IMG/VR virus record: IMGVR_UViG_3300022837_000037
Location: 1-34,226 of that record
Reading direction: 5' to 3' (one strand)
Source: a virus
Lineage: Duplodnaviria > Caudoviricetes
Length of the DNA stretch: 34,226 bases
Both the position numbers and the translations under genes were made by a program. Shown piece by piece: positions 1,112 through 21,472 of the stretch; the first letter of the stretch is position 1; the number at the start of each line of letters is the position of its first letter. The notes beneath the pieces are model-generated. The model searched no databases, was not told where the DNA came from, and saw only the letters and a list, made by a program, of their open reading frames with translations.

Positions 1112-2818
1112 ATGGGTGTATTTAAAAGAGAAGAGCCAGCACAGGAGCCAGTAGCTCCAAAAGCTAGCGCTAAAAAATCTAGCAAAGGCAAGCCTTTCGG
1201 GAGCTCAAGACTTCCACAGCCAGCTGGTGCATCTTTCTTCTTCAACGCCCCAACTCCCGTTCCCTTTAACTCTCCCCGCGCCCTTACGGCTGCTGCCTCG
1301 CAAGTAAAAATGAACGACAAGGCCGAGTTCGAGCAGTTTAAAGCGCGCCGCTCCGCTTCATCCTCCGCTTGGCAGTCAGAAGCTTGGGAGTACTACGACG
1401 CAATTGGCGAAATCAAATACGCCTTCAACTTAGTTGCATCCGTTGTCTCACGTATCCGCATCTTTGCGGCTGCAATTGACGACCCAAGCCAGTCTCCTGT
1501 TGCAGCGAGCGAGTCCAGCTCAATCGACCAGAACCTTGCCTCAGCCGCAGAACGCGCACTTTCCCGCCTCAACTCCGCCTACGGTGGACAGCCAGGTCTT
1601 TTGAAAGATGCTGCCCTCAATCTTTCAGTTACTGGCGAATGCTACCTAGTTCAGATGCCAGCCCGTAGAGGAACTGGAGAGCCCGAGTCTTGGGACATCC
1701 GTTCCGTTGATGAAGTTGTAGCTGACGGTAGCGGAAACTTAAACGTTATTGGTCGCCGCGAACAAGGCGCAGGGCAGGGTGGCGGAAAAAACTCAGGAGT
1801 TGTCAACCTAGGCAAGAACGCTTTCGTTGGCCGTATCTGGCGCTCACACCCTCGCTACTCAGACGAGTCCGACTCGAGCCTGCGCGGTCTATTAGACCTT
1901 TGCGCAGAATTGCTTTTGTTGAACAGAACTTTCCGTGCAACCGCTCGCTCACGCCTAAACGCTGGCGCTCTTTACTTGCCAGACGGTCTTTCCGTAGCTG
2001 CACAGGGCGACCCTGCAAACTACCCTTACGATTCTGAAGATGGAATTGGCGCTGGCTTCACAGCTGAGGAAGCAGAAGACGAGTTTGAAGAGCAGTTGAT
2101 GGACGCGATGACCACGCCGATTCGTGACGAAGAGTCCGCATCTGCAGTTGTGCCCCTGATTATCCGTGGACCTGCCGAGCTTGGCGATGCCATCAAGCAG
2201 TTTAAGTTCGAGCGTTCTTTCGACCCAGCGCTAGCTGAGCGCTCCGACCGCGTACTAGAGCGTATCTTGCAGGGCCTAGATGTTCCTAAGGACGTCGTTA
2301 CGGGGCTTGCCAACGTTAAGTACTCCAATGCGCTCCAGATAGACGAAGCTCTTTATAAAGCTCACATCGAGCCTTTGATGCTCCTTATTGTTGACGCCCT
2401 AACAGTTGTCTACTTGCGTCCGTACCTAATTGCCAACGGCTACTCAGAGTCAGAAGTTTCTCGCATCACCGTTTGGTATGACCCTTCAGCCGTTTCTACA
2501 CGTAACGACAGGGCAACCGATGCTGACGCAGGCTTTGACCGCGGAGCAGTGTCCTACGACACATGGAGACGTGCGCACGGCTTCTCGGACCAAGATGCCC
2601 CCACTCCTACAGAGCTTGCAATACGCATGCTTCAGGAAAAGGGCTCGCTAACTCCAGAACTTACCGAAGCGATGCTTGGCGCTGTTTCCCCAGAGATTAT
2701 GAATGCAGTTCGTGCAGCACAGCAAGGCCAGTCCGTTGCCCCGTTGCCAACTGAAGTTGAAGAGGTTTTGAAAAGAGCAGCCGCGGGCGAGCCTGCCCCT
2801 GAAGAAGAAGCTAACTAA
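1112..2818 (+). CDS. portal protein (actinophage cluster-B-like)
   Basis: 568 aa; WQSEAWEYYDAIGEIKYA...SRIRI, GRIWRSHPR...SDSS, RSRLNAG and SAVVPLI motifs recalled from cluster-B-type portals. GAGGAG RBS upstream; first large gene of the head module. Confidence 0.85.
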   Translation: MGVFKREEPAQEPVAPKASAKKSSKGKPFGSSRLPQPAGASFFFNAPTPVPFNSPRALTAAASQVKMNDKAEFEQFKARRSASSSAWQSEAWEYYDAIGEIKYAFNLVASVVSRIRIFAAAIDDPSQSPVAASESSSIDQNLASAAERALSRLNSAYGGQPGLLKDAALNLSVTGECYLVQMPARRGTGEPESWDIRSVDEVVADGSGNLNVIGRREQGAGQGGGKNSGVVNLGKNAFVGRIWRSHPRYSDESDSSLRGLLDLCAELLLLNRTFRATARSRLNAGALYLPDGLSVAAQGDPANYPYDSEDGIGAGFTAEEAEDEFEEQLMDAMTTPIRDEESASAVVPLIIRGPAELGDAIKQFKFERSFDPALAERSDRVLERILQGLDVPKDVVTGLANVKYSNALQIDEALYKAHIEPLMLLIVDALTVVYLRPYLIANGYSESEVSRITVWYDPSAVSTRNDRATDADAGFDRGAVSYDTWRRAHGFSDQDAPTPTELAIRMLQEKGSLTPELTEAMLGAVSPEIMNAVRAAQQGQSVAPLPTEVEEVLKRAAAGEPAPEEEAN

Positions 2819-2820
2819 TT

Positions 2821-3999
2821 ATGGAAAAAGGGGACGAGCTAGCTAAGGGGCAGGGCAACGTTCCTATGCCTCAACCAACTTCGTCAATTACCGTTTCTGA
2901 TAAGAACAGCCTTATCCGTACTCTGTCGACTCTAGAGAATGAAGTTCACGAACTTCGCAAGACCATCAGAGAAGAGTATGCCTCCGAAGAGCTTTCCAAT
3001 AGCCCATGCTGGGACGGCTACGTCCAAATAGGAATGAAGAAGGGTAAAAACGGTAATCAAGTTCCTAACTGCGTTCCTGCTACTACTTCAGCTATCGCCG
3101 AAGCTGCAACGTTTGCCGCTGAGAACAGGCCAGCTGCCCCTGAGGGCTTCCACTACATGCCAGACGGTGCACTAATGCCAGACTCGGCACACGACGAGAA
3201 TGCCCCAAGACCAGAAGCTCCCGAAGGTTATCACTACATGCCAGACGGAAATCTTATGTTGGACTCTGAGCACGACGACGAAGCTGCAGCTAAAAAGAAG
3301 CGCACTGCTGCCCAGACTCCTGCTCCCAAGAAGGACCAAGTAAAAGGCTCTTCAAAGAACAAAAAGGGCTCGGCTTCTGGCAGTAAGAAAATTACCTTCT
3401 CAAAGGCCGTAGAAAAAGCTCTTTCCAACAAGGTTGAGACCCACAATAAAAAAGCATCGAAGGGACGCCGCGCAACTCTTGGGATGCTAAAGGCTGTTTA
3501 CCGCCGCGGAGCTGGGGCCTTCTCCACAAGCTACCGACCTGGACAGAACCGAAACTCTTGGGCACTTGCTCGCGTTAACGCGTTCTTGCGTTTGCTTTCC
3601 TCAGGTAAACCCTCTAAGGCTGCTTACGTACAGGACAACGACCTACTTCCTGCTTCACACCCAAGGTCCACCAAGAAAGACTCTTCTACCGAGCCCTTGA
3701 CCGCTGACGCTCAGGACCACTCCGAGCTAGAACTTATAACGGCCTCTGCTTACGCAGAAGCTGAACTCGAAATCGAGCTGCCCGCAGAGAACACTTTTAA
3801 AACAGCACAGGAAGCAATTCTTGCTCTTACCGAGTTTTCAGATTTTGGCTACGAAGCAGAAGAAGCTATCAAGGCAAGCTGGCTCCGTGCAATACGAAAC
3901 GGGGAAGACCCATACGTAAGAGCGAAGCTTCTCTCAACTTTGACACACGACAGTTTAGATGCAGACTTATTGCCAAGAGAGGCCTCTGAAAATGAGTAA
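2821..3999 (+). CDS. head-associated multi-motif protein (CWxGY..NCVP motif, 2x HYMPDG repeats, DUF5824-like domain)
   Basis: 392 aa; PCWDGYVQIGMKKGKNGNQVPNCVP; two 27-aa repeats; KAVYRRGAGAFSTSYRPG..WALARVNAF resembles DUF5824-type viral domains. Located directly after portal. Confidence 0.7.
   Translation: MEKGDELAKGQGNVPMPQPTSSITVSDKNSLIRTLSTLENEVHELRKTIREEYASEELSNSPCWDGYVQIGMKKGKNGNQVPNCVPATTSAIAEAATFAAENRPAAPEGFHYMPDGALMPDSAHDENAPRPEAPEGYHYMPDGNLMLDSEHDDEAAAKKKRTAAQTPAPKKDQVKGSSKNKKGSASGSKKITFSKAVEKALSNKVETHNKKASKGRRATLGMLKAVYRRGAGAFSTSYRPGQNRNSWALARVNAFLRLLSSGKPSKAAYVQDNDLLPASHPRSTKKDSSTEPLTADAQDHSELELITASAYAEAELEIELPAENTFKTAQEAILALTEFSDFGYEAEEAIKASWLRAIRNGEDPYVRAKLLSTLTHDSLDADLLPREASENE
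3127..3276 (+). repeat. tandem 81-nt (27-aa) coding repeat, 2 copies
   Basis: Identical 17-mer CACTACATGCCAGACGG at 3151-3167 and 3232-3248; protein RPxAPEG[FY]HYMPDGxLMxDSxHD twice. Confidence 0.9.
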
Positions 4000-6900
4000 C
4001 GAATACCCGATTAAGCCAGCAACACATACGCTATCTTTTGACGGACAAAATGCGAGCATCATTCGCGACATTCTTTCTTCTCTTGCAGAGCTAAACGAAG
4101 GTCACCGCGCATCTCGCCGAGTTACAGCTGGCATGGCTAAAAAAGTCGCCACACGCTCTCTTGCAAAGACTGCCGACCAGACTTACTCCCTTCGCCGCCA
4201 CCGTGCTTTTTCCGACCTCTCAGACTTCGCGGCACTTGCCCAGTTGGATAAGGGGCTTACCGCTTCTGCCCACACGAACCTGCTCCCCGTATCACATCCT
4301 CGGTCTACTCGCAAAAGTGCAATGGACTGGAAAGAACTTCGTAAGGCGCAAGCACGTTGGTTTGCTGACGACTCTCGCGTTACCGACCCCCTAGTTGGGC
4401 CGCTTCTCGCATCTGCCTTTACCGCTGAGCTAGGAAGCTCTGCCCACCAGTACGCTGTTGCTCGTCTGAACGCAATGGGACCAACTCAGGTTCCTCTAGT
4501 TGCATTGGTTGCCGCATTTAAAATGGGTGGCAATAAAGGCTTCTGGCGCTTCCAGCTTCGAGACAGTGAAGGTAAGTTTGCCAACATGTTTGGCGGTATC
4601 CGCAGGCTAGTGCGCCGTATAAACGGGACCGTTTCGTGGCTTGCTGGTCGAGTTGTTTCGACCAACCCAAATAACAAGACTTTTATCCAAGAACTACCAG
4701 ATGGCAGGCTAATTAGAACAGCAGCCTCTGCTGGTAAGTCTGTTAAGGCAATTCTTCCCAACCAACAGGACGCTCAAGGATTCAGCAAGACTCCAGCCAA
4801 ATCAGCAGCTGATAGCGATGTGGTTGACGAAGCAGACTTAGAGTTTGTAGATTCTCCAGATGGCTACAAAAAAGACCCGTCTTATAAGCCTACGCAGGAA
4901 GACATTGACTACTACGGACCAAAGATTGACCTTGGAACTAAATTTGTTGACGATAACGACAACTATGAAGTCCTAAAGTTTGACAACGGAGCCAACGTTG
5001 CCGCAAGAAACAAGTTTGAAGCCCAGCAGCAAAAAGAAGCTGAAGGTAACAACGTTGTTGCTCTAGGCATGGCCGAAGACGGCGAGCTTAACCCAGCGCT
5101 GCCTGTTTATTTTGTTCGCCGTAAAGATGACAAAGATAAAGACTTTGCTGTTGCTCAGTCTTGGGCAGATGTTCAAGACTTTATCGCTAAAGACGAGGAC
5201 CTTTACGAAGCAGGCGAGCCAGCTGACCCACAGCGTCCTTCACGCTCTGCTGGCCTTCTTGACCCAGAGCTTAAGGTTGGCGACAAGGTTGATACAGCTA
5301 ACTTTGACGGGGAAGAGATTCCTGGAGACGAGAATGCGTCCAAGTCACTACAGACTGCTTACCAGAAGAAACTAAAAAGCTTTAAAGATGCAGGCGGCGA
5401 GTTCCCACTTGACCCAACCCGTAGTCACTTTATGTTGGAAGACGGCACTGTTATCGACTCCGAGACGGGCCGCGTTCTTCGCGACTCCGTTGGAAACGCA
5501 AACCCAGACGCATGGCTAGATGATTTTGACGAGCAAGGAACTCAGAAGGACGAGGAAGCTCCTGCTGCAGCCACAGACGACACCCCTGAGACCGAATCAC
5601 CCTCTGTACCAGCTAACTACTATGAAATAGATACAAACGCTTCCTACGAGCCTCAGGGGGCTACTGAAGGGCAAGAGTCTGAGGACTTTACCGATGACCC
5701 TGCTGCACTTTCAGAAGAGTTCTCAGCTAAAGACCTAGTTAACGCTCTAAATGAGGGTGTTGTTGGTTCCGATAGCGTTCCTGGCAACGGTTTTGGCTAC
5801 TTGGACTTCTCTGACGGCGCTGAGATAGTTCCAGTTGAGGCTATCTACGAAGCTCTTAACGAAAAGGGCGAAGACGCTAAAGCCATTCTTGATGATATCT
5901 ACAAAGTCGGCAACGGTGACTTAGGGACTAAGGTTCCTAAGGGGACAAAAGAAGCCCTAGGTGACGAGCTTCCTGAAGCAGCTAAGGCCGAGCCTACGGG
6001 TAAAAAGCTTCCTCCACTGATTGAGGGAATGACCAAAGATGAGCAGCAAGCATTTTTGGATTCAGGCGAGTACAAGGCCTACCTCCCAGAAAACAAAGCT
6101 TACTCAGACTCTGATGTTCCAGAGGGTTACTCAGCAATTGACGAAGCACCTTTCAATGAAATTGAGGGCGACACTCCTCAGGATGCACCTCAAGGCTTTT
6201 CTGTCAGCCCAGTTGACATTGCTAACGATTACAAAAACGAAGAACTTATCAAGGAGCTTCGCCGCTCTATAGAGCCAGGAAATGCAACTCCAGGTTATGG
6301 AATCTTGGGCATGGACACTCCTGAAGGGGAGCAGTACCTAGCAAACGTTCCAGCCGAGGCAATTCGTGACGCACTTCAGCTGCAAGGCGTGGACACCGAC
6401 GAGCTGATAGATGCTATCTACGCAGAGGGCTTAAAAGGGCAAAACTTTGACGAGCCTACTAATGCTCAAATCCAAGACGCTATTGACGGCGAGGATGTTG
6501 AAGAAGTCGAAGCTACCCCCGAAGAAACCCCAGTAGCAGAACTTCCAGCTGCAGACGAACCAGTAGCCGCCGCTGACACAGCCACATCTACGTCAGAAAT
6601 CTCAACAGGAGAACCAGACGGACCAGCTCTACTAAGCGCCAGTGCCGAGAACCTTAAAGCAGGGGATATTACGTTCTCTGACAACTTTGTAATTGAAAAT
6701 GTATTCTCCGACGCTGACTCAGAGGCACAAAAGCCAGGAAGCGTTTGGATTGAGGGATACTACCCTGGACACCAGACTCAGAAGACAAAGCTCTGGGGCA
6801 AGAATGTTCAGATTAAAGTTTACCGCAATGTAGAAGCTCCTGCAAAGGGAGACCTCCCAGTTCTATCTAAGCCAAAGCCAAAAGAATTTGACCCCGAAGG

Positions 6901-9900
6901 TAAGATTTTTAAGGACAAGAACTTAGGGGTTTTTGTTCCTAAGGACGCAGAAGCTCGTAGCAAATTTCTTGATGCTTTAGACGAGTACAACAAAAACCTA
7001 GCGCAAGCTCAGGGGCTATGGACCGAACCTGACATCCAGACTCTTGCTGTGTGGCAGACCGAGGAAGTTGCCTTACCGTTTAGCCCAGCAACCCCCGTTG
7101 GTGTAACTACGGTTAAGGCTACAGAAGTTAAAGCTGGAGACGTCACTTTCAAAAAAGAGTGGGGTTCTGATTTTTACGAGTACTTCATTATTGAAGGCGT
7201 AGAAGAGGTAGACGGAAAAGCTGTTGTTAAGGGTTACTACCCTGGACACGTTTCGCAGACAAAAGAGTGGAACGCCACCACTGAGATTACGGTAATGCGC
7301 GGTGCCTCTAACTTGCCAGCTCCTGGAGAAAAGCCAGCGCTTTCACGCCCAGACAAGACTGACCTAGATTTAGTAGAGAAGAAAGCCGCATTCAAGGAAG
7401 CAAAGAAGCTCTCCGCAGAAGGCTTTACTCCTCCAATTGACCCAGACTCCGTTTCAACTGCTCAAACGGGAGCCACCGACAAGCCTAAGAAAAAGACTCC
7501 TTCTAAGCCAAAGCCTCCTGCCTTTCCAGCATTCTCTGGGGATAGGCTCAAGCAGATTGAAATTGAAGCAGCTGGCGACCCTACAAAGTTCCTAGAGCTT
7601 CTAGAAAAAGAAGAGATAATCTATCTCGACTTCGAGACTGCAGCTGACGGTGCATTTGAAGGCCAGACACCTATTCAAGTTGCATGGACCAAAATCAAAG
7701 ATGGTTTATCAACTGGCGTCGGAGCTTACTGGATGAACCCAGAAGTGCCACTTTCAGACTTCTACAAGAACGCCGACCCAGACGAGACCCTAAAAGACCC
7801 TTCTGGTAAGCCAGTCTCTAATGAGTTCTTGGCAGAGCAGCCTTCTATCCAAGAGCAGATGACAAAGCTTCTTGAAAAGATTGGCCCTGACACAATTGTT
7901 CTAGCTCACAACGTGCCGTTTGATGGTGGCATTATGAAGCGCTTCGCCCAAAAGTTCAACCTTCAGTACAATCCAGGCGGGGAGATAGACACCCTATCCC
8001 TAGCTCGTCTTGTTATTAACGGAGGCTACAAAGCGCACACGCTTCAAAACGTTGCAAGCCGCTACGGAATTGTACCTAACGGCAGCTGGCACGACGCGGT
8101 AACTGATAGTGATGTACTTCCTCCAATCTTAAAAAATCTTTTAGAAGAGATGTCTAAGACAAAGCAAGGACTCTCAGCTCTTAACGTTGACGCCAACATG
8201 CAAAAGTATGAAGAGGAACTTGTAAAGTTCAAAGCAGCCCAGGCTAAAAAAGACCTCGCTGACACAAGCCTTCCTGTCTCTAAAATCGTTAAAGATACTT
8301 TTGGTGGCGACGCTAAGGTCTCTACAGTTGACGAAATTATAAAGACAATGCCTAAGGTTCGTCCAACTTCTGATGAGGTTACTTCTGCTACAGCCGCAGC
8401 TAAGGTTGATTTAGGGGACGGCGACCTAGAAATTCAATCCGTACTAGGTGACTCCATCTCAAATAACTGGGTAAATGACAACGAGAACACCACATCGCTT
8501 GGCAAAGTCCCTGTTGAGCAGTGGCAGGCAGGGGACTTCCTCCGCGCTCCATCAGGTGGCTGGTTTGAAGTCCTCGAAGTTGTTGAGGACCCAGCTGACT
8601 CAGACAACATGTTTGTAAGACGTCGTTTGCTTATAAATGGCAAAGAGTACGGTATGAACAAGTCTTGGGTAAAGTTCCAGGCTTACGAGATTCGACGCCG
8701 CAACGGTGAAGTTGACGCTCCTGTTATTGAAGAAGCAGCTCCTAATGTCGACACGGAAACTACCATTGAGAAGTGGCAGAGCTACGACATTAAGCAAGAT
8801 GCTGACGGTGTTTACTATGCTGACGGAATCTCTAGCTCTGATGTTCAGAAGCTACGAAACGGGTTGATGACTCCACCTCAGTTGCCGTTCTTTGCTCCAA
8901 TGGGCGGCGGCAATAACCTTGACCAAGGCGATGGCTACTTCTTCTCTGCTAACGGACAACGTTTCTGGGGCAAGTTTGGTGCAGCGGGCGCTCTAGTTCG
9001 CCGTAAAAACAACGAAGGCGTCTTTGAGTACTTCCTCGCAAAGCGTTCCTCTGGACTTTCACAGGGTGGCGGAAAGTGGGGGTACCCAGGTGGTGCCCAC
9101 AAGGACAAGGGCGACTCCGAAGAAAATAACGGCATCATCACTGCAATCAATGAATTCGAAGAAGAAGTTGATGGCGACTTAAGCCCAGACTTTGTTGTTC
9201 CAGTAGGTCAGTTTGATAATCAAGTTGCTCCTGACTGGACATACAATACTCACCTATTTGAAGTAGGACCAGGACAGCTAAACGACCTGTCGCTAAAAGA
9301 CGGAGAAAACTCTGAGATTGGTTGGTTCACTGCTGACCAAATCAGCAAGATGGCTTCTCAAGGCACTCTTCAAGACAACTTTGCACAGACCGCAGATGTG
9401 CTCTTGGGCCTTGCGCTCGACGAGCCTACGACAACTGAGCCCGATGAAATTACTATCCCTGAAGCACAAAGCGGCTCATTGGGTCAAGTCTTTGATACGT
9501 CCAAGTGGAAAAAGGTAGCAGGACAAGCTGGGTCAAACCAAGGTGCGTTCTATGTTGACCCAGACAGTGGGCAACAGTACTACGTTAAAACCCCACAGAG
9601 TGAGTCCCACGCAGCTAACGAAGTTCTTGCCTCCGCGCTGTACGAAGAGGCTGGTCTAGACGTTGGTCGTTCTTACATTGGTAAGAACAAGGCTGGGAAA
9701 ATGGTTATAGTTTCTCCTTTCATTGATGGAACCGACGGAACTCTCGGTCAGATTGCACCTAACCAAAACATCACTGACGAAATCAAAAAGGGCTTTGCAG
9801 TTGACGCGTGGATGAACAACTACGATGTCATCGGCCTTGAGAAGGACAACATTGTTGTTGCCAACGCCAAGCCTTTCCGTATTGACGCTGGTGGTGCACT

Positions 9901-12900
9901 GCTCTTCCGTGCTCAGGGAGCTGACAAGGCCAAAGAGCTGGATACAAATGTCGCAGAGCAGATTAGCTCACTTCGCGATTCAAATGTTAACTCTCAGGCA
10001 GCAAGCGTATTCGGAGACATGACCGACGCCGAGATTGCTGAGTCAGCAAAGCTCGTTGCAAATATTGACGAAGCCAAAATAGATGAACTTGTAGACGCAG
10101 CCTTTGGCGGCGGTATTGAGGGCATTGACAGCCAATCTATTGCAGACAAGCTTAAGGAAAACCTAAAGCGTCGTCGTAACGAGCTTATTGAAATATATGG
10201 ACTTGACGATGCACCTATTGAAACTCCTGCTGCGTCAGAGGGCGGTCCAGAGAAGGTACTTCTTTCACTTGACGACATAGACCCAGAAGACCTAATTGAC
10301 GACCTTGATGCTCAAATTCAGGATGCAATTGCTACTGGAAACAACATTGTCTTCACGTACAACGGCAAAACAGTAGACCTTTCCCCAGCAGAAGTGAAAA
10401 CTTCCCAAACTGGGAACGTCGCTGTTGGTGGGACACTTCCTAATGGGAAGTTCTACGCATACAGCCTGTCAAAGATGGAGCAGGCGAATGACACCCCCTC
10501 CGAGGCAACTACCCCCGACCTAGCCACTCCAGAGACGCCAAGCCTTATAACTGTTGACACGGAAATTGAGCCTGTCGAAGCACAAAAGCCAACTGAAGTG
10601 CCTCAAGACCAAAAGCAAAAACTTCTTGAAAAAGTTGAAAACATTGCTGAGGCTTTGTTCGGCACAAAAGACCCCGAAAAAGTTAAGCAGATTCTTCAAG
10701 GATTTTTAGATAACGAGGTAGAAGACCCAGAACTTGTTCAGTCTATCCTTGACGACCTGAACAGCCCTGCGCCTGCGGTTGTGCCTATAGAAGCCCCTAT
10801 AGAAAAAGCTGATGCCGACATAAAACAGTCTCTCGTCCCAATTGACGGTGACGAAGACATCCCTGCAGCTGAAGTCTCCAAAATTGACCTTGACGAGCTT
10901 TCCCAAGAATTGGCCAATCCTACAGACCCTGACTTAATTTGGGCAAAGGTTATTGAGGATTATGAAGGCAGCGTTTTGGATAACGGCCACGTTGTCGTGT
11001 CTTCTCTCAATTTTGGTAGCAAACGTTTAGATGTGCTTGTTAAGCGCAACTCCGATAACACCTTCAGCATCTATCACCGCGTAACAGACGAGGAGACGGG
11101 GCAGACTAGAGTTAAAGAAATGAAGGGTCGTTGGCACTCTTTCACGGCACTAGATAGCCGAATTTCTAATGAGATTTACAAGAGCCAGAACTTCCCAAAC
11201 AAAATTGCTTCAGTGTCTAAAAAAGAAGGAGTAACAACGCTTCAGCCTTCTATGCCTCCTAAGCAATCAGGGTCTTACGTATCTGCTGACGGCAAAACTG
11301 TTGTCAAGGTTGGCATGACTGTTATTAACACTAAAACAGGCAAAAAAGGTATTGTAACTTCTCTAAAAGACCAGTATGTTGTTAAAGCTGGCGGCAAGGT
11401 CTACACCTACACAGACGTTGCAAAGGTAAAGTTTGAAGGAGAAGCTAAAGCAAACTGGAAAGCTTCCACCTTCTTAATGCCTGAAGGCTCTCAATCCCCT
11501 GAGGACGGACCTGACCAAGACTCTGGACAAGAAGGAGACGGCGGCGGAGGCGGAACACCGACCCCACCAACTACTCCCGAGACACCAGCGCCTGAAGCAC
11601 CTACACCCGAGCCAGAAGAGGTACAACCAGCTGAAGCAGTGGCCCCAAGCGGTCTTACCCCAGAAAGTAGCCTGTCTGAAGTTGAATCTGTAGCTGTAGA
11701 CAAAAACTCTGCAATGCATACTTCTTACTTTGGTGCTTCAAATAAAAGCGAGTACAAAAACCTTGTTAAAAAGTACTTGGTAAAAGACGCAACATCCACT
11801 GGTCAGAATATGCTCCCTGGAATTATTGCTTCTAACCAAGACCCAGACGCGCCAAACCCAGAACTTGCAAGCCACGGTGTCATAACAAAGACTTTCCCAA
11901 GCGAGCTTGCCGTAGAGGTTACGTACTTCGACGGGCCAATGAAAGGCACTACTCAAAAGCTAGAACAAAAAAACGTATGGAGCCGCGAGAAGTTTTTAAC
12001 TAACGAGCAGTCCAAAGAGCTGGGGATTGAAGTAGACGACTCAATTCGTACTGAAGCTATAAAGGCTCAGGGTGCCAAAGCTGAAGAGGCAAAGAAGCAA
12101 GCCGTTGCTCAAGCAGCACAACAAAAGAAGCAAAAAGAGGAAGCTGCTAAAAAAGCCGTAATCGAGAAAGCCAAGCAAGACTTAGCGGATAAGTTCACAG
12201 TTGAGGGCCCTGGGTTTGCTGTAGAAACTCTAGAGGGTGACGCAGATTGGAGCTCGACTCCGCTTGCGCAAGTTCCTAGCCTTAAGAGTGCTCTTGACAA
12301 AGTAAACTCTGGTGACCCTATAGACGCCACCAACGGCGCTCAGATTATGCTTGACAGCGCGGACATAGAAGACTTAAAAGTTCGTATTCAAAAAGTAGAA
12401 AAAGACGGCGCAAAGCAAATCCGTCTTTCCTTTAAGCTGACTAACTGGGCAGGGAACGCTTGGACTAAAAAGCTAGCTAAGCAACAGTTATCTGATGTTC
12501 AAGACACATCCAGGCTAGATAAGTACAAGGTCAACCCAGACGGTTCTCTTGTTTTTGAAAAAGAGTGGAACTCCAATGACGTTGATGGATACAGTAAGGG
12601 CCGTACATACAGAGGAGACCTTACTGATGGCAAAGGTAAGTTCCAATTTATTAGGGCTAACCGAAGTGGAAACACTCCAGATTTCTTCAATAAGGGTGGC
12701 TCCCACAACGGCTCGGTGTCTCTTCACAACAGAGTAGAGCTTCTCTTGCCAGAAGACGCTACCCCCGAGGACATTGCAGCTGCCCTAAAAGAATTGACTG
12801 CTATCCAAGAAGTACGCCCCGCTATGAAGTCAGACTTTAAGGGAGTAGCGGAAAACAAAATTATTAGCCTCTTTGGCCAAAAAGGCAACGGAGCAAAAAA

Positions 12901-13588
12901 CTACGAGGGAGAGCTTCGTAAGCAGATTCTTGATGAAGTAGAGAAAAACTACGGCTTTACTGCCGATAACATGGAAGTCCGTGTAGACGAGCAGCAAAAG
13001 GGTATTATCCAGTATCTTCTTCCAGAACAAGTTGCAGAGCAGCTAGCGGCAACATACGGAGTTGACTTCTTTAAGCACAACTTTGCTGACAAAAATCTAC
13101 CTAATGACGACAAAGAACGTGCAGACTTTGTCTACGATTTGCTATTCAAAAAGGGTGGCGGATTGTACTCCACAGTTACTCGTTGGAGCGAAGGTATAAA
13201 CACCTCTGGGCAATCAAGCTCCTCTGACCTTGCGGGAGTTGGAGCAGGGTACATTTTTACTTCAAAAGTTTCTTCTATGGAACTGAACGGCGTTTCCTAC
13301 AAAAGTTTAAACTTCTTCTTTGACGGAGTCCAACTTATTCGCCGCCCCGAGTTTTACGGTTCTAGCTATGACGCATGGGGTAAAAAAGTAGCCGATACTG
13401 ACTACTTAGAGCTTCTAAAGAATAAAAACCTATCAGAAGTACTGTTCAAGGAGAATCTCAGCTGGGCAGACCTTTCTGGGATAGCCTTGGACTCATCGGC
13501 TAGGAAGTTTTTATTAGAGCGGCTAACAGCAGAAGGAATCACCGAGATTTCTGGAAAACCCGTAGAAGAAATGTTTGGAGTTAAGTAA
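3992..13588 (+). CDS. giant (~3198 aa) multi-enzyme virion-associated protein: DEDDh exonuclease + Nudix + kinase-like + WYL-like + SH3/KOW-like + possible ART-like C-terminus
   Basis: Uninterrupted 9.6-kb ORF. Start reassigned to ATG 3992, which overlaps the previous gene's end. Domain motifs are listed in the sub-features. Sits between portal and protease, the usual MuF/minor head position. Confidence 0.85.
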   Translation: MSNEYPIKPATHTLSFDGQNASIIRDILSSLAELNEGHRASRRVTAGMAKKVATRSLAKTADQTYSLRRHRAFSDLSDFAALAQLDKGLTASAHTNLLPVSHPRSTRKSAMDWKELRKAQARWFADDSRVTDPLVGPLLASAFTAELGSSAHQYAVARLNAMGPTQVPLVALVAAFKMGGNKGFWRFQLRDSEGKFANMFGGIRRLVRRINGTVSWLAGRVVSTNPNNKTFIQELPDGRLIRTAASAGKSVKAILPNQQDAQGFSKTPAKSAADSDVVDEADLEFVDSPDGYKKDPSYKPTQEDIDYYGPKIDLGTKFVDDNDNYEVLKFDNGANVAARNKFEAQQQKEAEGNNVVALGMAEDGELNPALPVYFVRRKDDKDKDFAVAQSWADVQDFIAKDEDLYEAGEPADPQRPSRSAGLLDPELKVGDKVDTANFDGEEIPGDENASKSLQTAYQKKLKSFKDAGGEFPLDPTRSHFMLEDGTVIDSETGRVLRDSVGNANPDAWLDDFDEQGTQKDEEAPAAATDDTPETESPSVPANYYEIDTNASYEPQGATEGQESEDFTDDPAALSEEFSAKDLVNALNEGVVGSDSVPGNGFGYLDFSDGAEIVPVEAIYEALNEKGEDAKAILDDIYKVGNGDLGTKVPKGTKEALGDELPEAAKAEPTGKKLPPLIEGMTKDEQQAFLDSGEYKAYLPENKAYSDSDVPEGYSAIDEAPFNEIEGDTPQDAPQGFSVSPVDIANDYKNEELIKELRRSIEPGNATPGYGILGMDTPEGEQYLANVPAEAIRDALQLQGVDTDELIDAIYAEGLKGQNFDEPTNAQIQDAIDGEDVEEVEATPEETPVAELPAADEPVAAADTATSTSEISTGEPDGPALLSASAENLKAGDITFSDNFVIENVFSDADSEAQKPGSVWIEGYYPGHQTQKTKLWGKNVQIKVYRNVEAPAKGDLPVLSKPKPKEFDPEGKIFKDKNLGVFVPKDAEARSKFLDALDEYNKNLAQAQGLWTEPDIQTLAVWQTEEVALPFSPATPVGVTTVKATEVKAGDVTFKKEWGSDFYEYFIIEGVEEVDGKAVVKGYYPGHVSQTKEWNATTEITVMRGASNLPAPGEKPALSRPDKTDLDLVEKKAAFKEAKKLSAEGFTPPIDPDSVSTAQTGATDKPKKKTPSKPKPPAFPAFSGDRLKQIEIEAAGDPTKFLELLEKEEIIYLDFETAADGAFEGQTPIQVAWTKIKDGLSTGVGAYWMNPEVPLSDFYKNADPDETLKDPSGKPVSNEFLAEQPSIQEQMTKLLEKIGPDTIVLAHNVPFDGGIMKRFAQKFNLQYNPGGEIDTLSLARLVINGGYKAHTLQNVASRYGIVPNGSWHDAVTDSDVLPPILKNLLEEMSKTKQGLSALNVDANMQKYEEELVKFKAAQAKKDLADTSLPVSKIVKDTFGGDAKVSTVDEIIKTMPKVRPTSDEVTSATAAAKVDLGDGDLEIQSVLGDSISNNWVNDNENTTSLGKVPVEQWQAGDFLRAPSGGWFEVLEVVEDPADSDNMFVRRRLLINGKEYGMNKSWVKFQAYEIRRRNGEVDAPVIEEAAPNVDTETTIEKWQSYDIKQDADGVYYADGISSSDVQKLRNGLMTPPQLPFFAPMGGGNNLDQGDGYFFSANGQRFWGKFGAAGALVRRKNNEGVFEYFLAKRSSGLSQGGGKWGYPGGAHKDKGDSEENNGIITAINEFEEEVDGDLSPDFVVPVGQFDNQVAPDWTYNTHLFEVGPGQLNDLSLKDGENSEIGWFTADQISKMASQGTLQDNFAQTADVLLGLALDEPTTTEPDEITIPEAQSGSLGQVFDTSKWKKVAGQAGSNQGAFYVDPDSGQQYYVKTPQSESHAANEVLASALYEEAGLDVGRSYIGKNKAGKMVIVSPFIDGTDGTLGQIAPNQNITDEIKKGFAVDAWMNNYDVIGLEKDNIVVANAKPFRIDAGGALLFRAQGADKAKELDTNVAEQISSLRDSNVNSQAASVFGDMTDAEIAESAKLVANIDEAKIDELVDAAFGGGIEGIDSQSIADKLKENLKRRRNELIEIYGLDDAPIETPAASEGGPEKVLLSLDDIDPEDLIDDLDAQIQDAIATGNNIVFTYNGKTVDLSPAEVKTSQTGNVAVGGTLPNGKFYAYSLSKMEQANDTPSEATTPDLATPETPSLITVDTEIEPVEAQKPTEVPQDQKQKLLEKVENIAEALFGTKDPEKVKQILQGFLDNEVEDPELVQSILDDLNSPAPAVVPIEAPIEKADADIKQSLVPIDGDEDIPAAEVSKIDLDELSQELANPTDPDLIWAKVIEDYEGSVLDNGHVVVSSLNFGSKRLDVLVKRNSDNTFSIYHRVTDEETGQTRVKEMKGRWHSFTALDSRISNEIYKSQNFPNKIASVSKKEGVTTLQPSMPPKQSGSYVSADGKTVVKVGMTVINTKTGKKGIVTSLKDQYVVKAGGKVYTYTDVAKVKFEGEAKANWKASTFLMPEGSQSPEDGPDQDSGQEGDGGGGGTPTPPTTPETPAPEAPTPEPEEVQPAEAVAPSGLTPESSLSEVESVAVDKNSAMHTSYFGASNKSEYKNLVKKYLVKDATSTGQNMLPGIIASNQDPDAPNPELASHGVITKTFPSELAVEVTYFDGPMKGTTQKLEQKNVWSREKFLTNEQSKELGIEVDDSIRTEAIKAQGAKAEEAKKQAVAQAAQQKKQKEEAAKKAVIEKAKQDLADKFTVEGPGFAVETLEGDADWSSTPLAQVPSLKSALDKVNSGDPIDATNGAQIMLDSADIEDLKVRIQKVEKDGAKQIRLSFKLTNWAGNAWTKKLAKQQLSDVQDTSRLDKYKVNPDGSLVFEKEWNSNDVDGYSKGRTYRGDLTDGKGKFQFIRANRSGNTPDFFNKGGSHNGSVSLHNRVELLLPEDATPEDIAAALKELTAIQEVRPAMKSDFKGVAENKIISLFGQKGNGAKNYEGELRKQILDEVEKNYGFTADNMEVRVDEQQKGIIQYLLPEQVAEQLAATYGVDFFKHNFADKNLPNDDKERADFVYDLLFKKGGGLYSTVTRWSEGINTSGQSSSSDLAGVGAGYIFTSKVSSMELNGVSYKSLNFFFDGVQLIRRPEFYGSSYDAWGKKVADTDYLELLKNKNLSEVLFKENLSWADLSGIALDSSARKFLLERLTAEGITEISGKPVEEMFGVK
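7616..8150 (+). other. DEDDh (DnaQ/PolC-epsilon-like) 3'-5' exonuclease domain within giant ORF
   Basis: ExoI IIYLDFET, ExoII VLAHNVPFD, IDTLSLAR, HTLQNVASRYGI, ExoIII WHDAVTD; all catalytic D-E-D-H-D positions present. Confidence 0.9.
8927..9420 (+). other. Nudix hydrolase domain (actinobacterial MutT3-like) within giant ORF
   Basis: GDGY..FWGKFGAAGALV..LAKRS...GGKWGYPGGA..TAINEFEEEV..WTYNT; resembles the GDGW..WGRYGAAG..GGTWGLPGGA pattern of mycobacterial MutT3. Nudix box is degenerate. Confidence 0.8.
9500..10200 (+). other. HipA/PI3-4-kinase-like domain within giant ORF
   Basis: Gly-rich GQAGSNQG, YYVK lysine, NEVLASALY helix-C glutamate, DAWMNNYD..DN catalytic loop and IDAGG DFG-equivalent, in kinase order. 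Confidence 0.7.
10316..10490 (+). other. WYL-like domain within giant ORF
   Basis: IQDAIATGNNIVFTYNGKTVDLSP...GKFYAYSLSKM parallels the WYL pattern AI..(F)xY..VxP..R.FRLDRI but is degenerate. Confidence 0.45.
13070..13500 (+). other. possible ADP-ribosyltransferase-like fold at C-terminus of giant ORF
   Basis: FKHN ... GGLYSTxxR ... GAGYIFT ... SEVLFK gives an H / GLxS / aromatic / E order reminiscent of ART folds. Inference only. Confidence 0.4.
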
Positions 13589-13896
13589 TGAAAGACAAGA
13601 GACTAATTTTTAAAGGCGAAGGTATTCTTGAGAAAACTTCTAGCGAGGGGGTCTTCAAACGGTACATCTTTGGGGCCACTCTTACCTCTTCACCAGACAA
13701 CCCAGACGACTATATTACTGTAGACATGAGCGACTACGGATACGACTTCTTGGTTGATAGCGAGGATGTCACTATTGATTCAGACGGTATAATTACCTTT
13801 GAAGCTTTCGATGCTCAATACGTTATTCGTAAGGTGTCAGAAGCAGATGACTTACGAAATCTTAATCCAGAATTAGAAGACAGTGAGGAAGCCTAA
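13588..13896 (+). CDS. small acidic hypothetical protein (102 aa), translationally coupled to giant ORF
   Basis: TAATG overlap at 13586-13590; D/E-rich. Confidence 0.8.
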   Translation: MKDKRLIFKGEGILEKTSSEGVFKRYIFGATLTSSPDNPDDYITVDMSDYGYDFLVDSEDVTIDSDGIITFEAFDAQYVIRKVSEADDLRNLNPELEDSEEA

Positions 13897-14177
13897 TGGC
13901 AGAAACTCAGGGCACTGAGATAATGCAGTCTGTGGAGGCTTTGGTCGATACCAGCATAGACCAGGTAGTCACTATTGTCTACGATGTTGAGAACCTGGGA
14001 ACCTTTTTCAGAATTGATGGCAGGTGGAGACTGGGCACCCCCGAGATTGCTGCCGAGTTTGATGACACTGAGATTACAGAACTTGACTATGACAAATCTG
14101 TGGAACTTGTAGCACGTTTTGATGACAACGAGCTAATTACCTCCAAAGACTTGGCTGACTACGAGAGAAGCGAATAA
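13896..14177 (+). CDS. small acidic hypothetical protein (93 aa); resembles a module inside the protease polyprotein
   Basis: TAATG overlap at 13894-13898; GTFFRIDGRW resembles VTFIRKPGKW in the downstream gene. Confidence 0.8.
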   Translation: MAETQGTEIMQSVEALVDTSIDQVVTIVYDVENLGTFFRIDGRWRLGTPEIAAEFDDTEITELDYDKSVELVARFDDNELITSKDLADYERSE

Positions 14178-14180
14178 CAC

Positions 14181-17100
14181 ATGGAATTCCACGGCAAGCA
14201 CGAAACCCGACTCCTGTACACAGACAACGAGCGAGCTGTCATTGTTGATACCTTGTCCAACACGGTTGTTTCCATTGACGAGTCCGAGACTCTTATTGCC
14301 TCAGCGCAGTGGGATGCTTCAGTTGCCGAGCCTGAGGGCCCTTCGGCAGAATTGGCTAGAGCCGCTGTCACCGAACTAGATATCAAAGTTTTATCTGCTA
14401 ATGACCGTATGTACACAATTCCTAAGTCAGTTGTCTCGGAAGCAAAAAGAGGGCTAGCTTGGAGAAAAGAAGAAAAGCGCGGCGGCACTCCTGTTGGTCT
14501 GAATAATGCGAGGACCCTACTTGCAGGCGGCCAAGTTGGTATTCAAAAAGTACGTCACATTGCTAAATATTTCCCTCGTCACGAAGTTGACAAGAAGGCA
14601 AAAGGCTATAAGCCTGGAGAAAAAAACTACCCATCTAACGGTCGTATTGCTTGGGCTCTTTGGGGTGGAGACGCTGCACAGCGCTGGGCCTCTGCCATTG
14701 TTGAGCGTGAGAATGCTCAAGGAGCTTTAACCTCTGGCGGGTATGACGAGTACTATGCCCAAGAAAAACTTGACTACGGCTCCTATGCTGCTACTGGAGT
14801 AGAGCCTGACTTCTACATTCGCATAAATCTAACCACTGGCGGCATTGACCGCTTATATAAGGTAGACGAAGACGGAACTTGCAAGGTTTGGGACAACTGC
14901 TCTTGGGAAGATATGGGCAACGTTGAGAACGATTTTGAAACTTACGACAAAGCCCTAGACGGTCCGTACGACAGAAGCCAAAAAACCTATATTCCTGTTG
15001 ACCGAGACACTGCTATTGCTTGCTCTGCAATGTTAGATAACGCTCCTATGGAGCCAGTGTTCCTAAAGCAGATTAACTTTGACGAGACAGAAATGTTTGA
15101 AGCAGCAATGCCAGAGCTTGACTTTGAATTGCTAGACCAGTTTAGTGACGAGACCCCCGACTTCCTAGAAGAAGAAGACGAGTTCGACGACGGTCTTATG
15201 GCCTCAGGCGTAGCAATGTTCGCTGAGCAGCCTTCCGTTGACACAAGTCCAGGAGTAGACACTCCAGAAGAAAGGTCAGAGCGAGCCGAGACACAGGTTC
15301 GTGACATGATGGGCCGCTTCTCAAAGAACGGCTCTACAGTAATTATTGGCGGAGACGCTAACTATAAAGGCGTAATAACTGCGCAAGACGCAAAAAACGA
15401 GACTGTAACTGTTGAACTTGCTAACGGCGAGTCCGTAACAGTTGCTGGTGGCTTAACTCAGCAGATAGATACTTTTAAGTCAGTGGCTACGTCTGACTTT
15501 CCTTCTAGCAACCTAGATTTTAGTGGAATCCTTGGTCAGCCAAGAACTCCTATTGACCAGCCAAATGCCCAGCTTCCTGGAACACTTCCGCCCCTATCTG
15601 CTTCTAATGTGAACACATTAGTTGGAGACTACAATTCTTGGGCTGGAGACCAAAGGTTAGCCCCTGAGTACAGCGGTGACCCAATTCCTCCGTTTGTTCC
15701 TAAAGCTGTGCCAGATATCAACACTGCGCTGGGACGCTACCACAAGGGCTCTTTTAACCCAGATGGTACGGCTAAGCCTGGATGGAGCCCTGCTACAACA
15801 GAAAACGTCTACAACGAGCCACTTCTTCGCGACTGGTTAGATTCTGTATACGGTGATAAGTCTGGCAAAGGCTCTGGACAAACTTACTCAAGCTGGTACA
15901 CACCTAAGACTTACTCTGGCATAGACGTAGATGATAAAAAGTCTCGTAACGAAGTAGTTGGGTCTAAAAACCGAAGTGATTTGGATAAAAAGTTTGACCC
16001 AACTCGACTCTCTGTCGAAGGACTCACCGCAGCTGCAGACGGCAAAGCCCGTGAGCTAACCCCAGAAAGCACTGATGTTAAGCCTTTGTACTTGGCTATT
16101 GTCGCCGATGACGACCCTCAAGCGGTAATGAACCTAGTTTGCCTAATCCCAGCAACCACTAAGACAACAGTTCCAGTTACCTTTATTAGGAAGCCTGGCA
16201 AATGGGTGAAAGATGCGCAGATTCTTGCCGATTTAAACAGCCCTACCCCCCCTCCTGTAATTGTGTTAGACACAGAGAACTTGGCAGTTGTTACGGAACA
16301 GATTGACGGAGAGTCAGTCACGGCGAGTGTAACCGTAAAGTCACATTTTGCTTTGACCAACAATTCAATAATTTCTGCACTTATGGCTGCTGGCGGTGCT
16401 GACCGCAACAAAGGCAACGCTGGAGCCCTGCGCCGTTACTGGACTGTAGGAAAAGGCGGACTTAAGATTCGCTGGAACACTCCTGGCGACTGGACCCGAT
16501 GTAATCGTCAGCTTAAGAAGTACATGGGCCCACGTGCAAAGGGCTACTGTGCTCTTCGTCACAAGGAGATGACTGGCGTATGGCCTGGAGACAAGAACAA
16601 TGTTGGGAAGAAAAAGGGTAAAGCCCTTAAAGCTTCTGCAGAGAAGCAGACCACCGAGCTATTTGGCCTAAAAACAGAAGCTGCCATTATTGAGATGGCA
16701 ACCTTACGTGCCCGTGCAACCTCGGCTAAGTCCAGAATGGCAGGGCGAATTGCCGCTACCCCTACAGAGCACGGTGCAAAGTTCTCGATTCCTCTAGTAA
16801 TCCCCGAGGGCACCGAGACTGGCGACGGACGTATCTTCCAAAAGGGCTCTATTTCTATGAGAGACCTTCCGTTACCACTTTTGTGGCAGATTAAAACGGG
16901 CAACGGTCACGACGGTTCTGTAGTTGTGGGGCAGATAACTTACATGGAGCGAACCGATGAGGGCATTGGGAACGCTATAGGTGTCTTTGATTCTGGAGAA
17001 TTTGGCCAAGAAGCAGAGAGGCTAGTTCGCTACGGTTTCATCCGCGGAGTGTCTGCCGACATGGATAAGTTTGAAGCTGATGAAGAAGCTCCAGAGGATA

Positions 17101-19249: not shown

Positions 19250-21406
19250 GTGGACCGTATTAAAGAGATGATGAATCAGCTCGCTGAGTTAGGTGCCGAC
19301 CAGGTTACCGAACTACAAGAGCAGATTGTCGCCGAATTCGAAGCGGTTGAGAACGAGGAACCTTCCTCACAGACAGTTGACGCGATGACGTCGCTTGCCT
19401 ACATGCTTGAGGCCGTTCGCGGCGAGGTCAAGCAGCGCGAGGCCGCAGTTCAGGAGCTCGCCCAGCGGGCTGCTGAGGCAGCTAGCCGCGTATATGGCGA
19501 TGACGCTAAAGAAGATATGACTGCTTCTAAAGGCAAAGAAGAAATGAAAGACGAGGAGATGACCTCATCTGACTCAGAGGCCGCTATGGACTCTGAAGAA
19601 GAGAAGGTAGTAACCGAGCCTGACGTTCCTGCAATGCCAGCATCCGAGGAGATGAAAGACGAGGCTCCAGTAGCCGAATCTGAAACTCCAACCGAATCCG
19701 ATTCCGAAATGGAAGAGGACGAAATGGAAAAGAAGAAGACAATGTCCGAAGCATCAACTGAACTGAGTGAGACTACCGAACTCTCAATTGAAAACGAAAC
19801 TGTTTCAGAGGCATCCGCCGAAGAGACAATCACTGCTGCTGCCGAAGAAGAGACAGTTGTTGAAGTAGAGGCCGAAGAGGCTTCTGTGGAGACAGTTGTT
19901 GAAGCTGAAGCTGCAGTAGAGACCGCCGAAGTAGAAGTGTCAACCGAAGAGGTTGCTTCCATTGAAGAGGGTGCAGAAGCTGAAGCTTCTGTGGACTCCG
20001 AAGTAGAGGCCGCAGTAGAGGTAGAAGTTTCAGCCGAAGCCGCAACAAACGAAGAAACCACATCAAACGCAGCTGAATTATCAGCTCAAGAAACTATGGA
20101 GGCACCTGTGACCGCTTCTGCCGAAAATGCAGACAACCTCGACCTAGAGGTACCAGCGGACCGCCGTTTGGCATCCAAGGAGACCGCTTCTCCCGTGGCA
20201 ATCACGGCAGGTGCAGATATCCCTGGATATACAGCTGGCAGTACGCTAGATGACATGAGTACCGTTGCTGAGGCAATGGCAAAACGCCTACACGCGCTTC
20301 GTCGCGTGAACGGTGGGGACGGTGAGCAGCACATTGTTGCATCAATCACTCAGTCCTACCCTGAGAGCCGCACCTTGACCTCAGACGCTGAAAGCAACAG
20401 GCTCAAGATTAGTAATCTTGTATCACCTGAGGCTATCGTTGCGGCTGGTGGACACGTTGCTCCTTTCGAAGCCCGCTACGACGTTTTTGGAAACGGTTCG
20501 ACCGCTCGCCCAGTGCGTGACGCTCTTCCTCGCTTCCAGGCTGACCGTGGTGGTATCCGTTATGTTACCCCACCTAAGCTATCAAGCTATGCTGACGCTG
20601 TTGGTGTTTGGACTGCTGCTAACGATGCAGCTGAGACCCCAAGCCCATCTTCCAAGCTGAGCTTAACTGTTGAAGCTGCTGCAGAGAACACTGTAGCAAC
20701 TGACGCTGTAACCCTACAGCTACAGTTTGGTAACCTTGCAACACGCGCTTACCCTGAGTTGATTTCTCGTCACAACGAGCTTGGTCTAATTCAGCACGCA
20801 CGTGAAGCAGAGCAGAACTTGCTAGCCAAGATTACTTCCGCCTCGACCGCAGTTACTACCACAAACCTAATCGGTTTTGGTCGCGACTTCTTGGTCCAGA
20901 TTGGACGCGCTGCGTCTGCTTACCGTTCACGTCACCGCCTAGAGGCTGACGCTCCATTGCGTATTATTATCCCTACCTGGGTAAAAGACGCCATGGCTGC
21001 TGACCTTGCCTTGTCTATGCCTGGAGACAGCACTCTCAACGCTTACGCTGAGATTGATGGCTACATCGCAAGCCGCGGCGTAATCGTGAGCTACTCATTG
21101 GACCAGAACGTATTCGGTGCTCAGGGTGCAACTGCACTTGTTGAGTTCTCTGACACGTTCACTTGGTACCTATTCGCCGAAGGAACATTCTTGTTCCTAG
21201 ACGGAGGCACCCTGGACCTCGGAATCATCCGTGACAGCACCCTAGTTGGAACCAACGATTACAAGATGTTCGTTGAGACCTTCGAAGGTATTGCTATGGT
21301 TGGCGTCGAAGCTCTCGCTGTTACTTCAACCATCAACGTCAACGGTGCAGCTGCTGCACTTCGCGACACCCTTGGTGGAGTAGCCGCATCAGTCATTGAG
21401 CTCTAA
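19250..21406 (+). CDS. major capsid protein with N-terminal acidic scaffold-like region
   Basis: 718 aa; Glu/Ala-rich N-terminal half followed by ~320-aa domain starting IVAAGG..YD..RPVRDALP.FQADRGGI..GGTLDLGIIRDSTL..NDY..FVETFEG, as recalled for cluster-B-like capsids. Strong RBS. Confidence 0.88.
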   Translation: MDRIKEMMNQLAELGADQVTELQEQIVAEFEAVENEEPSSQTVDAMTSLAYMLEAVRGEVKQREAAVQELAQRAAEAASRVYGDDAKEDMTASKGKEEMKDEEMTSSDSEAAMDSEEEKVVTEPDVPAMPASEEMKDEAPVAESETPTESDSEMEEDEMEKKKTMSEASTELSETTELSIENETVSEASAEETITAAAEEETVVEVEAEEASVETVVEAEAAVETAEVEVSTEEVASIEEGAEAEASVDSEVEAAVEVEVSAEAATNEETTSNAAELSAQETMEAPVTASAENADNLDLEVPADRRLASKETASPVAITAGADIPGYTAGSTLDDMSTVAEAMAKRLHALRRVNGGDGEQHIVASITQSYPESRTLTSDAESNRLKISNLVSPEAIVAAGGHVAPFEARYDVFGNGSTARPVRDALPRFQADRGGIRYVTPPKLSSYADAVGVWTAANDAAETPSPSSKLSLTVEAAAENTVATDAVTLQLQFGNLATRAYPELISRHNELGLIQHAREAEQNLLAKITSASTAVTTTNLIGFGRDFLVQIGRAASAYRSRHRLEADAPLRIIIPTWVKDAMAADLALSMPGDSTLNAYAEIDGYIASRGVIVSYSLDQNVFGAQGATALVEFSDTFTWYLFAEGTFLFLDGGTLDLGIIRDSTLVGTNDYKMFVETFEGIAMVGVEALAVTSTINVNGAAAALRDTLGGVAASVIEL

Positions 21407-21472
21407 GCCCGATTCACGCAATAAGTAATAAGTAAAGCAATGTTCAGAACCCGCAGAGGAGAATAAGGAAAA

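Follow-up and report, generated by a model that had tools for sequence, protein, structure and literature searches.

Polyvalent proteins are large chains of disparate enzymes that phages encode near their virion genes, with ArdC-N and MPTase-PolyVal domains, helicases and ADP-ribosyltransferases (ARTs) among their parts (PMC5512222, in the portion available). MuF polymorphic toxins lie near the portal gene, have a variable C-terminal toxin and are followed by a small downstream gene (PMC5576092, available portion), a pattern shared by the MuF-VIP2 fusions of actinophages (PMC7302621, likewise in part). DarT, of the DarTG systems, is an ART with the residues H13, R51, Y71 and E160 (PMC9967889, available portion) and is an anti-phage toxin (PMC9503650, available portion). 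The giant protein described here holds at least two disparate enzymatic domains, is encoded among virion genes and varies in architecture among its orthologs, and its relatives too carry ArdC-N with MPTase, helicase and ART domains. It also has the near-portal position, variable C-terminus and small downstream gene of the MuF toxins, and its ART family also tips MuF proteins.

The window, by which we mean the whole 34,226-nucleotide stretch of viral DNA analysed (IMG/VR record IMGVR_UViG_3300022837_000037), contains the giant as one open frame of about 9.6 kb, as the sequence-only reading had proposed. The frame runs from an ATG at 3992 to a stop at 13588, its ATG overlaps the stop of the upstream gene and is preceded by GAGAGG, and near-identical full-length copies occur on other contigs (92-100% identity per segment in L004). 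In a comparison with L009, pN was lower than pS in 17 of 17 segments. The placement between portal and protease is correct as to position, which is kept in relatives and in the phage DSL-LC01, except that a DUF5824 gene and two small genes also intervene; the major capsid gene lies beyond the prohead-protease fusion (Table 1).

Table 1. Features of the giant's locus, in window positions
Feature	Position	Strand	Basis or remark
Portal protein	1112..2818	+	phrog_776, E 7e-106
DUF5824 protein, paralog of N1	2821..3999	+	Pfam, BLAST
Giant polyvalent head-locus protein, 3,198 aa	3992..13588	+	open frame, copies in relatives
N1, helical DUF5824-like domain, paralogous to upstream gene	4031..4522	+	BLAST, model
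LVAA (aa 172-175), putative prohead-protease site at end of N1, before disordered linker	4505..4516	+	inferred
N2, QxRDxxGxF motif and KOW/SH3-like barrel	4550..4750	+	VIA Z 6.6 to KOW
R1a and R1b, duplicated conserved scaffold domains	5609..6481	+	comparison with relatives
R2a and R2b, duplicated GYYPGH domains	6635..7414	+	HHalign R2a-R2b 100%
DEDDh DnaQ/RNase T-like 3'-5' exonuclease, catalytic residues intact	7616..8146	+	Pfam, conservation
X1	8429-8716	+	weakly related to R2; HHalign R2b-X1 65%
RenU/MutT3-like Nudix domain	8924..9391	+	Pfam, profile match to 6uuf
HipA/PI3-4K-like atypical kinase	9482..10210	+	residues, ESM clusters, HHalign
WYL-like barrel	10289..10492	+	transitive only
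SH3/KOW-like segment (weak)	11273..11488	+	sub-threshold SH3-like Pfam matches
Conserved domain, no fold assigned	11669..12058	+	kept in relatives
C1, beta-sheet domain packed against ART in model	12227..12811	+	pTM 0.89
DarT-like ADP-ribosyltransferase domain (H3029, R3064, Y3087, E3149)	13028..13585	+	AlphaFold, VIA, Foldseek
S1, 102-aa tip-linked partner, candidate inhibitor	13588..13896	+	start overlaps giant's stop
S2, 93 aa, often fused to S1	13896..14177	+	also beside other tips, in Gordonia phage Forza
Prohead-protease fusion, 1,635 aa; presumed processing enzyme	14181..19088	+	PHROG match, processing motifs

The phage has a siphovirus-type tail with a tape measure protein of 1,121 aa. 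DSL-LC01, a metagenome-assembled Actinomycetia phage, is the only annotated phage that matches the giant at both ends, and about 710 stretches in viral metagenomes match the portal patterns. A WhiB gene was found in all four related genomes tested, so the host is probably actinobacterial. MuF toxins are reported in temperate phages (PMC5576092, available portion); a search confined to tyrosine integrases detected none in the four related genomes, and a lytic lifestyle is suggested at most. Some features of the neighbouring genes are recorded here. The DUF5824 protein contains the short sequence RPxAPEGxHYMPDG twice, together with a CWDGYVQIG motif. In DSL-LC01 the counterpart of the protease fusion is annotated as three genes. 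At window 19250-22387 a capsid protein of 718 aa, with a long acidic N-terminus that holds six putative processing motifs, is followed by a conserved 304-aa protein (phrog_779), a pair that we take to recall the hexamer/pentamer capsid pairs of some actinophages.

The first part of the giant is a candidate loading platform, probably of a type other than MuF. N1 is similar by BLAST to the products of the upstream DUF5824 genes and is a candidate, inferred, prohead-targeting part; a fold search with it returned generic helical folds only. In BFVD the aa 1-300 model has prohead-protease, ChaB-named and GodonK proteins as weak matches (E 0.007-0.14), and neither this model nor that of the tip (aa 2740-3198) had a BFVD match below E 0.001. 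The earlier remark that no MuF domain was recognisable is borne out by Pfam and PHROG searches and by fold lists free of MuF-named entries, while HHalign of N1 against a three-sequence MuF alignment gave 0.2%. A MuF domain is probably absent, a remote one being the residual possibility, and sequence comparison places a DUF5824-like N-terminus where MuF would stand. The linker after N1 is predicted to be disordered (pLDDT under 50). The QxRDxxGxF motif of N2 occurs twice more in the protease fusion.

At the end of N1 lies a putative prohead-protease site. The motif [LIVMF][TVM]A[ASG], defined post hoc after inspection of these same proteins, has seven copies in the protease fusion, where 1.6 are expected, and six in the capsid protein, where 1.5 are; in tail proteins it is at chance level. 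The giant has three strict copies, all within aa 44-175 (0.33 expected, p 0.002), and 47 of 51 homologs have something similar immediately ahead of the QxRDxxGxF barrel. A looser form, [LIVMF][TVM][AS][ASG], was found within 50 aa before S1 in five of six distinct fusions against a background of 4.6%. No strict copy follows aa 175, and thus there is no sign that the giant is cut into its domains. The available portions of two capsid papers, on Patience and Rosebush, say nothing on cleavage sites.

Pfam and NCBIfam searches of the giant named the exonuclease and the Nudix domain only, and PHROGs the exonuclease only. The exonuclease is intact, as first read: the Pfam RNase_T match (aa 1211-1373, E 7e-10) contains the D-E-D-D residues and the histidine required of DEDDh enzymes, D1213 and E1215 being present in 55 of 57 dereplicated homologs, D1311 in 56 of 57, and H1367 and D1372 in at least 90%. 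The description of the next domain as a MutT3-like Nudix was right in its affinity (Pfam E 1e-5; profile match to RenU/MutT3, 6uuf, E 4e-14) and needs qualifying as to its box, which is partly degenerate. E1721, E1724 and E1725 occur in 22 of 22 homologs, and the three glutamates essential for the activity of RenU (PMC4401782, available portion) are kept, but in GX5EX7REUXEEXGU other residues replace the first Glu and the Arg, and the box carries an insertion of four or more residues relative to RenU. RenU prefers ADP-ribose, FAD and NADH as substrates (PMC4401782, same portion).

The kinase-like segment, also correctly read, is a HipA/PI3-4K-like kinase by its residues and profiles. K1866, E1877, D1945, N1953 and D1965 are present in 39 of 39 homologs, so that Lys, Glu, the catalytic Asp and Asn and the Mg-binding Asp are all represented, in a catalytic loop unlike DRHxxN. 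Its nearest named ESM clusters, at 0.91-0.92, are HipA_2, PI3_PI4_kinase and LepB_N (names borne by 46%, 38% and 99% of the respective members), and HHalign against the PI3/4K-type kinases of relatives gave 82%, E 1e-5. Queried alone, the domain had no match in Pfam, NCBIfam or PDB, and a PDB sequence search with its profile gave nothing significant (LepB, E 1.7). The same kinase occurs in a protein of Yersinia phage fHe-Yen8-01 labelled 'phage particle associated' by a GenBank note that is the sole source of the label (a literature search found no paper on this phage). The WYL-like barrel has transitive support, its profile matching a stretch of L080 that Pfam names WYL (E 1.5e-18); it has no direct Pfam match, and a PDB profile search gave nothing significant. 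Of the two KOW/SH3-like segments in the sequence-only reading, the one at 11282-11470 has sub-threshold SH3-like Pfam matches only, and the one at 11800-11990 has no supporting match.

The possible ART at the C-terminus is supported by its predicted fold. Folding by segment had been proposed as a check; N1 gave the generic folds described above, and the AlphaFold model of aa 2740-3198 is confident (pLDDT 88, pTM 0.89) and DarT-like. In a VIA search of 48,161 representative chains, where the tool's stated typical best Z is 7-8 and 8.8 is therefore just above it, the four top rows were all DarT (Z 8.8, 7.7, 7.4 and 7.4), superposing with rmsd 3.6-4.0 over 142-151 residues that span aa 3013-3198; the next row had Z 5.9. 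Foldseek against DarT gave probabilities of 0.85-0.90 with E of only 0.065-0.08. C1 has middling TBP/START-like fold matches (Z 5.9 or less). The order of H3029, R3064, Y3087 and E3149 suggests that they are the equivalents of DarT H13, R51, Y71 and E160, where Arg and Glu are catalytic and His and Tyr bind NAD.

The family of this ART is large and unnamed by Pfam: a profile search with an E threshold of 0.001 found 1,242 clusters (50% identity), 421 of which also pass 1e-10. Among the best 150 of the 1,242 clusters, H3029 is conserved in 139 of 140, R3064 in 149 of 149, Y3087 in 138 of 151 and E3149 in 147 of 150; in 116 of these 150 no more than 60 aa separate the end of the domain from the C-terminus, and 87 of the 150 proteins have at least 1,500 aa. 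The Pfam DarT profile matched neither the giant's tip nor 44 family members, and the ESM atlas has no named cluster for the tip. Three of the 44 proteins scanned are fused to MuF, and two clusters bear source names for MuF. The ART domain is 92% identical to that of L004 while its neighbouring segments are 98-100% identical (pN 0.045, pS 0.06), and it has a variable loop at aa 3092-3108 (window about 13265-13315); the few substitutions give only a hint of diversifying selection. The same family is found in three Myxococcota/Deltaproteobacteria MAG contigs (L248:6001-6051, L249:4573-6606 and L250), in ORFs of about 680-1,930 aa that are each followed by a 102-104-aa gene with no S1 match.

S1 goes with this tip. 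We surveyed 66 distinct loci, each with a match to the protease N-terminus and an ORF of at least 500 aa ending no more than 2.5 kb upstream. By scripted labels 41 of them were ART loci, with S1 downstream in 37, fused in three and missed in one (L234), which does have S1 (E 9e-28); a locus scripted as 'other', L119, proved to be a split giant with ART and S1. After these corrections every one of the 42 ART loci has S1, as the next gene or as a fused domain, against two of 24 with other tips. The two exceptions, L158 and L162, are both S1-S2 fusions with giants cut at the 5' end, and L162 has a weak kinase match and no ART. At kinase-tipped loci the S1 slot holds a different gene family in eight of nine. 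A tree of the protease N-terminus was built from 61 of the 66 rows, five being too short; on it the ART label changes 11 times, at least six of these forced by strong branches (the L119 mislabel included), so ART-S1 was not inherited as one block.

Since ART-adjacent genes served to train the S1 profile and many loci were fetched by ART queries, the S1 positives are partly circular. The evidence from fusion is not: the fused copies, which played no part in the training, reach E 2e-9 to 6e-8. In all, eight loci of three types and five proteins have S1-domain C-termini (E 2e-9 to 2e-4). For 18 S1 members the Pfam matches agreed on no family. Outside this phage group the MuF locus L217 reached E 0.13-0.18 against S1 (HHalign 3.6%); it has a 768-aa ORF similar to P0166, a MuF-C1-ART protein, and behind that ORF a 122-aa gene, the top match of the S1 profile among non-members. 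A metagenome scan with P0166 found no locus. A profile match to a pilin fusion (E 8e-5) was dismissed: it involved two stretches of a tandem construct, and a single copy gave E 0.18. S1 likely keeps the tip inactive until the giant's likely packaging and delivery to a new host.

Other arrangements were observed at these loci. The C-termini of L220, L214 and L238 run from ART through a spacer domain and a putative cleavage motif to a fused S1. In L119 (1917-11323) the giant is divided into two overlapping frames just before C1, which is a genuine split or an assembly error. Giants tipped by a second, DRH-type PI3/4K-like kinase (L043, L093, L098, L102, L134-L140 and L152) each precede small gene families of their own, candidate kinase inhibitors. 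In the cultured Gordonia phage Forza (L003:7671-13203) three separate genes come right after the portal and code for the kinase (gp78), a homolog of S2 (gp79) and an ART of VIP2 type (gp80).

Domain swapping, which the sequence-only reading had listed as something to look for at this locus, is evident among related phages. N1, N2 and R1, often with R2 and the exonuclease, form a common scaffold, and the remainder of the chain varies, its payloads including ArdC-N with MPTase, a UvrD helicase, VIP2-type ART, KTSC, DUF3626 and the second kinase family; the tips are ART, kinase, MPTase and others. ArdC-N/MPTase-type domains occur in L076, L155 and P0044, whereas the window's giant has no MPTase match. 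L015 is 44-75% identical to it up to R1b and 90-100% beyond; L007 is about 40% identical over X2-KOW1 with flanks of 76-99%; and the contig of L013 has a portal 98% identical and no match past the exonuclease. These identities indicate payload swaps among very close phages. The combination of exonuclease, Nudix, kinase and ART, which the sequence-only reading did not recall from elsewhere, is present in 31 of 72 giants, a set retrieved with the giant's own ends. Relatives can be far longer, with whole frames of 5,086-6,094 aa in G010, G011, G012 and G014. Because relatives share a scaffold and swap payloads, and because the ART tip is fused to MuF elsewhere, the giant is best understood as working like a polyvalent protein or MuF polymorphic toxin, and the polyvalent, head-locus interpretation given at the outset is supported, while the packaging, injection and anti-defence activity proposed with it are candidate roles; the tip's DarT-like identity, its linked partner gene and the payload swapping had been missed.

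On balance we lean towards a giant that is loaded into the head, injected and early-acting as a multi-enzyme, with a tip restrained by S1 in the producing cell, a proposal built from sequences and models. What the sequences themselves establish is the location, the domains, the payload swapping among relatives and the co-occurrence and fusion of the ART with S1; the steps that follow are proposed. Quite probably the giant would be a late product that its DUF5824-like N-terminus, in MuF's stead, brings to the prohead. Rather tentatively, the prohead protease might trim it at LVAA and, in the fused forms, cut S1 away and so arm the tip. The giant would probably be ejected with the DNA and act early thereafter, S1 restraining the tip in the producing cell until then. 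The tip would very probably transfer ADP-ribose from NAD+; that the acceptor is single-stranded nucleic acid, as with DarT, we rate an even call. The Nudix domain would hydrolyse ADP-ribose, NADH or FAD-type molecules and the kinase phosphorylate host proteins. The portal-protease position, the MuF fusions of the tip and the kinase in a particle-annotated protein all argue for packaging. Against the proposal, a chain of roughly 350 kDa would have to traverse a siphovirus tail, and a DNA-modifying DarT-like tip could damage the phage's own DNA.

The nature of the acceptor separates this proposal from its best-surviving rival, an unlikely one, in which the packaged and injected giant has a tip whose target is protein or RNA, as for T4 Alt and the Tox-ART-HYD2 ARTs, S1 being a chaperone, an assembly factor or a kinase inhibitor. 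The best fold matches of the tip, DarT and then Tpt1/KptA, are all nucleic-acid enzymes, although a common fold does not fix the substrate and the characterised packaged phage ARTs modify proteins (PMC5512222, available portion). As to S1, the internal kinase was found in five of five ART-bearing genomes checked; it travels with the ART and S1 could thus be the kinase's partner. An S1-S2 fusion is found at 23 ART loci, and two loci have S1 in the absence of ART, yet S1 adjoins the ART or is fused behind it, and Forza gp78, which bears the kinase, precedes S2 and not S1.

Whether the giant leaves the cell in the particle is the issue in a second, unlikely rival, in which it is made late and acts unpackaged in the producing cell, in host shut-off, in recycling of host DNA and cofactors, or in blocking co-infecting phages as DarT does. 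Its position in the head module, the fusion of the same tip to MuF, and the N1 and QxRDxxGxF parts that it has in common with head-locus proteins all speak for a particle-bound protein; the awkward size of the giant for tail passage and the role of DarT as a defence toxin against phage (PMC9503650, available portion) speak for the rival. An anti-grazer 'Trojan horse' toxin aimed at protists feeding on infected cells, an idea put forward for the VIP2-type ARTs of freshwater actinophages (PMC6802176, available portion), would accord with the VIP2-type PF03496 domains of some relatives and is very improbable for this giant, whose tip is H-Y-E and DarT-like rather than R-S-E and whose cognate partner gene implies a toxin active in the bacterium that makes it. 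A mainly structural inner-head or ejection protein with decayed enzyme-like passengers, as the degenerate Nudix box and the many barrel-like and unassigned domains might suggest, is equally improbable given near-invariant catalytic residues in four enzymes at 30-50% overall identity.

Returning to the head-loaded, S1-restrained giant, its tip and S1 would be a candidate toxin-partner pair within an ART family of 1,242 clusters that lacks a name, and members of the giant's own family are frequent in viral metagenomes. Were the tip to modify DNA, the phage would be exploiting a DarT-type reaction, and a toxin fold that bacteria use against phages would have been turned into a phage weapon. The locus points to MuF-independent loading of cargo into heads and to arming of toxins by the maturation protease. 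The boldest form of the proposal, in which actinophages of a widespread lineage package a DarT-like DNA ADP-ribosyltransferase as an injected weapon, with an S1 inhibitor replacing the DarG-type hydrolase, the prohead protease arming the tip by releasing S1 and a DUF5824-type domain replacing MuF, is doubtful.

Compared with known systems, the giant departs from each in some respect. Its ART is H-Y-E and DarT-like whereas the Tox-ART-HYD2 of PMC5512222 is H-Y-D, and in the main text of that paper, as available, Nudix, exonuclease and WYL domains appear in other contexts only. It differs from MuF toxins in that no MuF was detected, several enzymes share one chain and the partner is sometimes fused. 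The tip resembles DarT1/DarT2 (PDB 8baq, 7omv, 7yk3; PMC9967889, available portion) in fold and in H-R-Y-E order, but its identity to them is 10-16%, it lacks a Pfam DarT match, forms the end of a phage-encoded giant and has the extra C1 domain. A small unrelated gene stands in place of DarT's Macro or NADAR partner: neither antitoxin was found in the five records searched for each, among which there is one complete ART-bearing genome, or by Pfam among 20 window proteins scanned. The tip's modelled fold is thus that of DarT, while by sequence and antitoxin it falls outside DarT membership. ORF94 of DSL-LC01 (OQ999401) is a syntenic homolog of 3,289 aa in which N1, R1, kinase, C1 and ART are present, and the gene after it is S1-like (E 3e-6); ORF94 has no exonuclease or Nudix match, and its authors left it unannotated (PMC10611076, available portion). 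A literature search that did not reach the supplements of PMC5512222 and PMC9503650 found no account of the MuF-free scaffold, the DarT-like tip family or the separate-or-fused partner, and the family may be listed in those supplements under another name (N4-like, p0068-like or ORF28). As far as the literature searched extends, therefore, the giant belongs to a known class of protein, and what it brings to that class is a MuF-free scaffold, a DarT-like tip family and a partner, S1, that is either a separate gene or fused.
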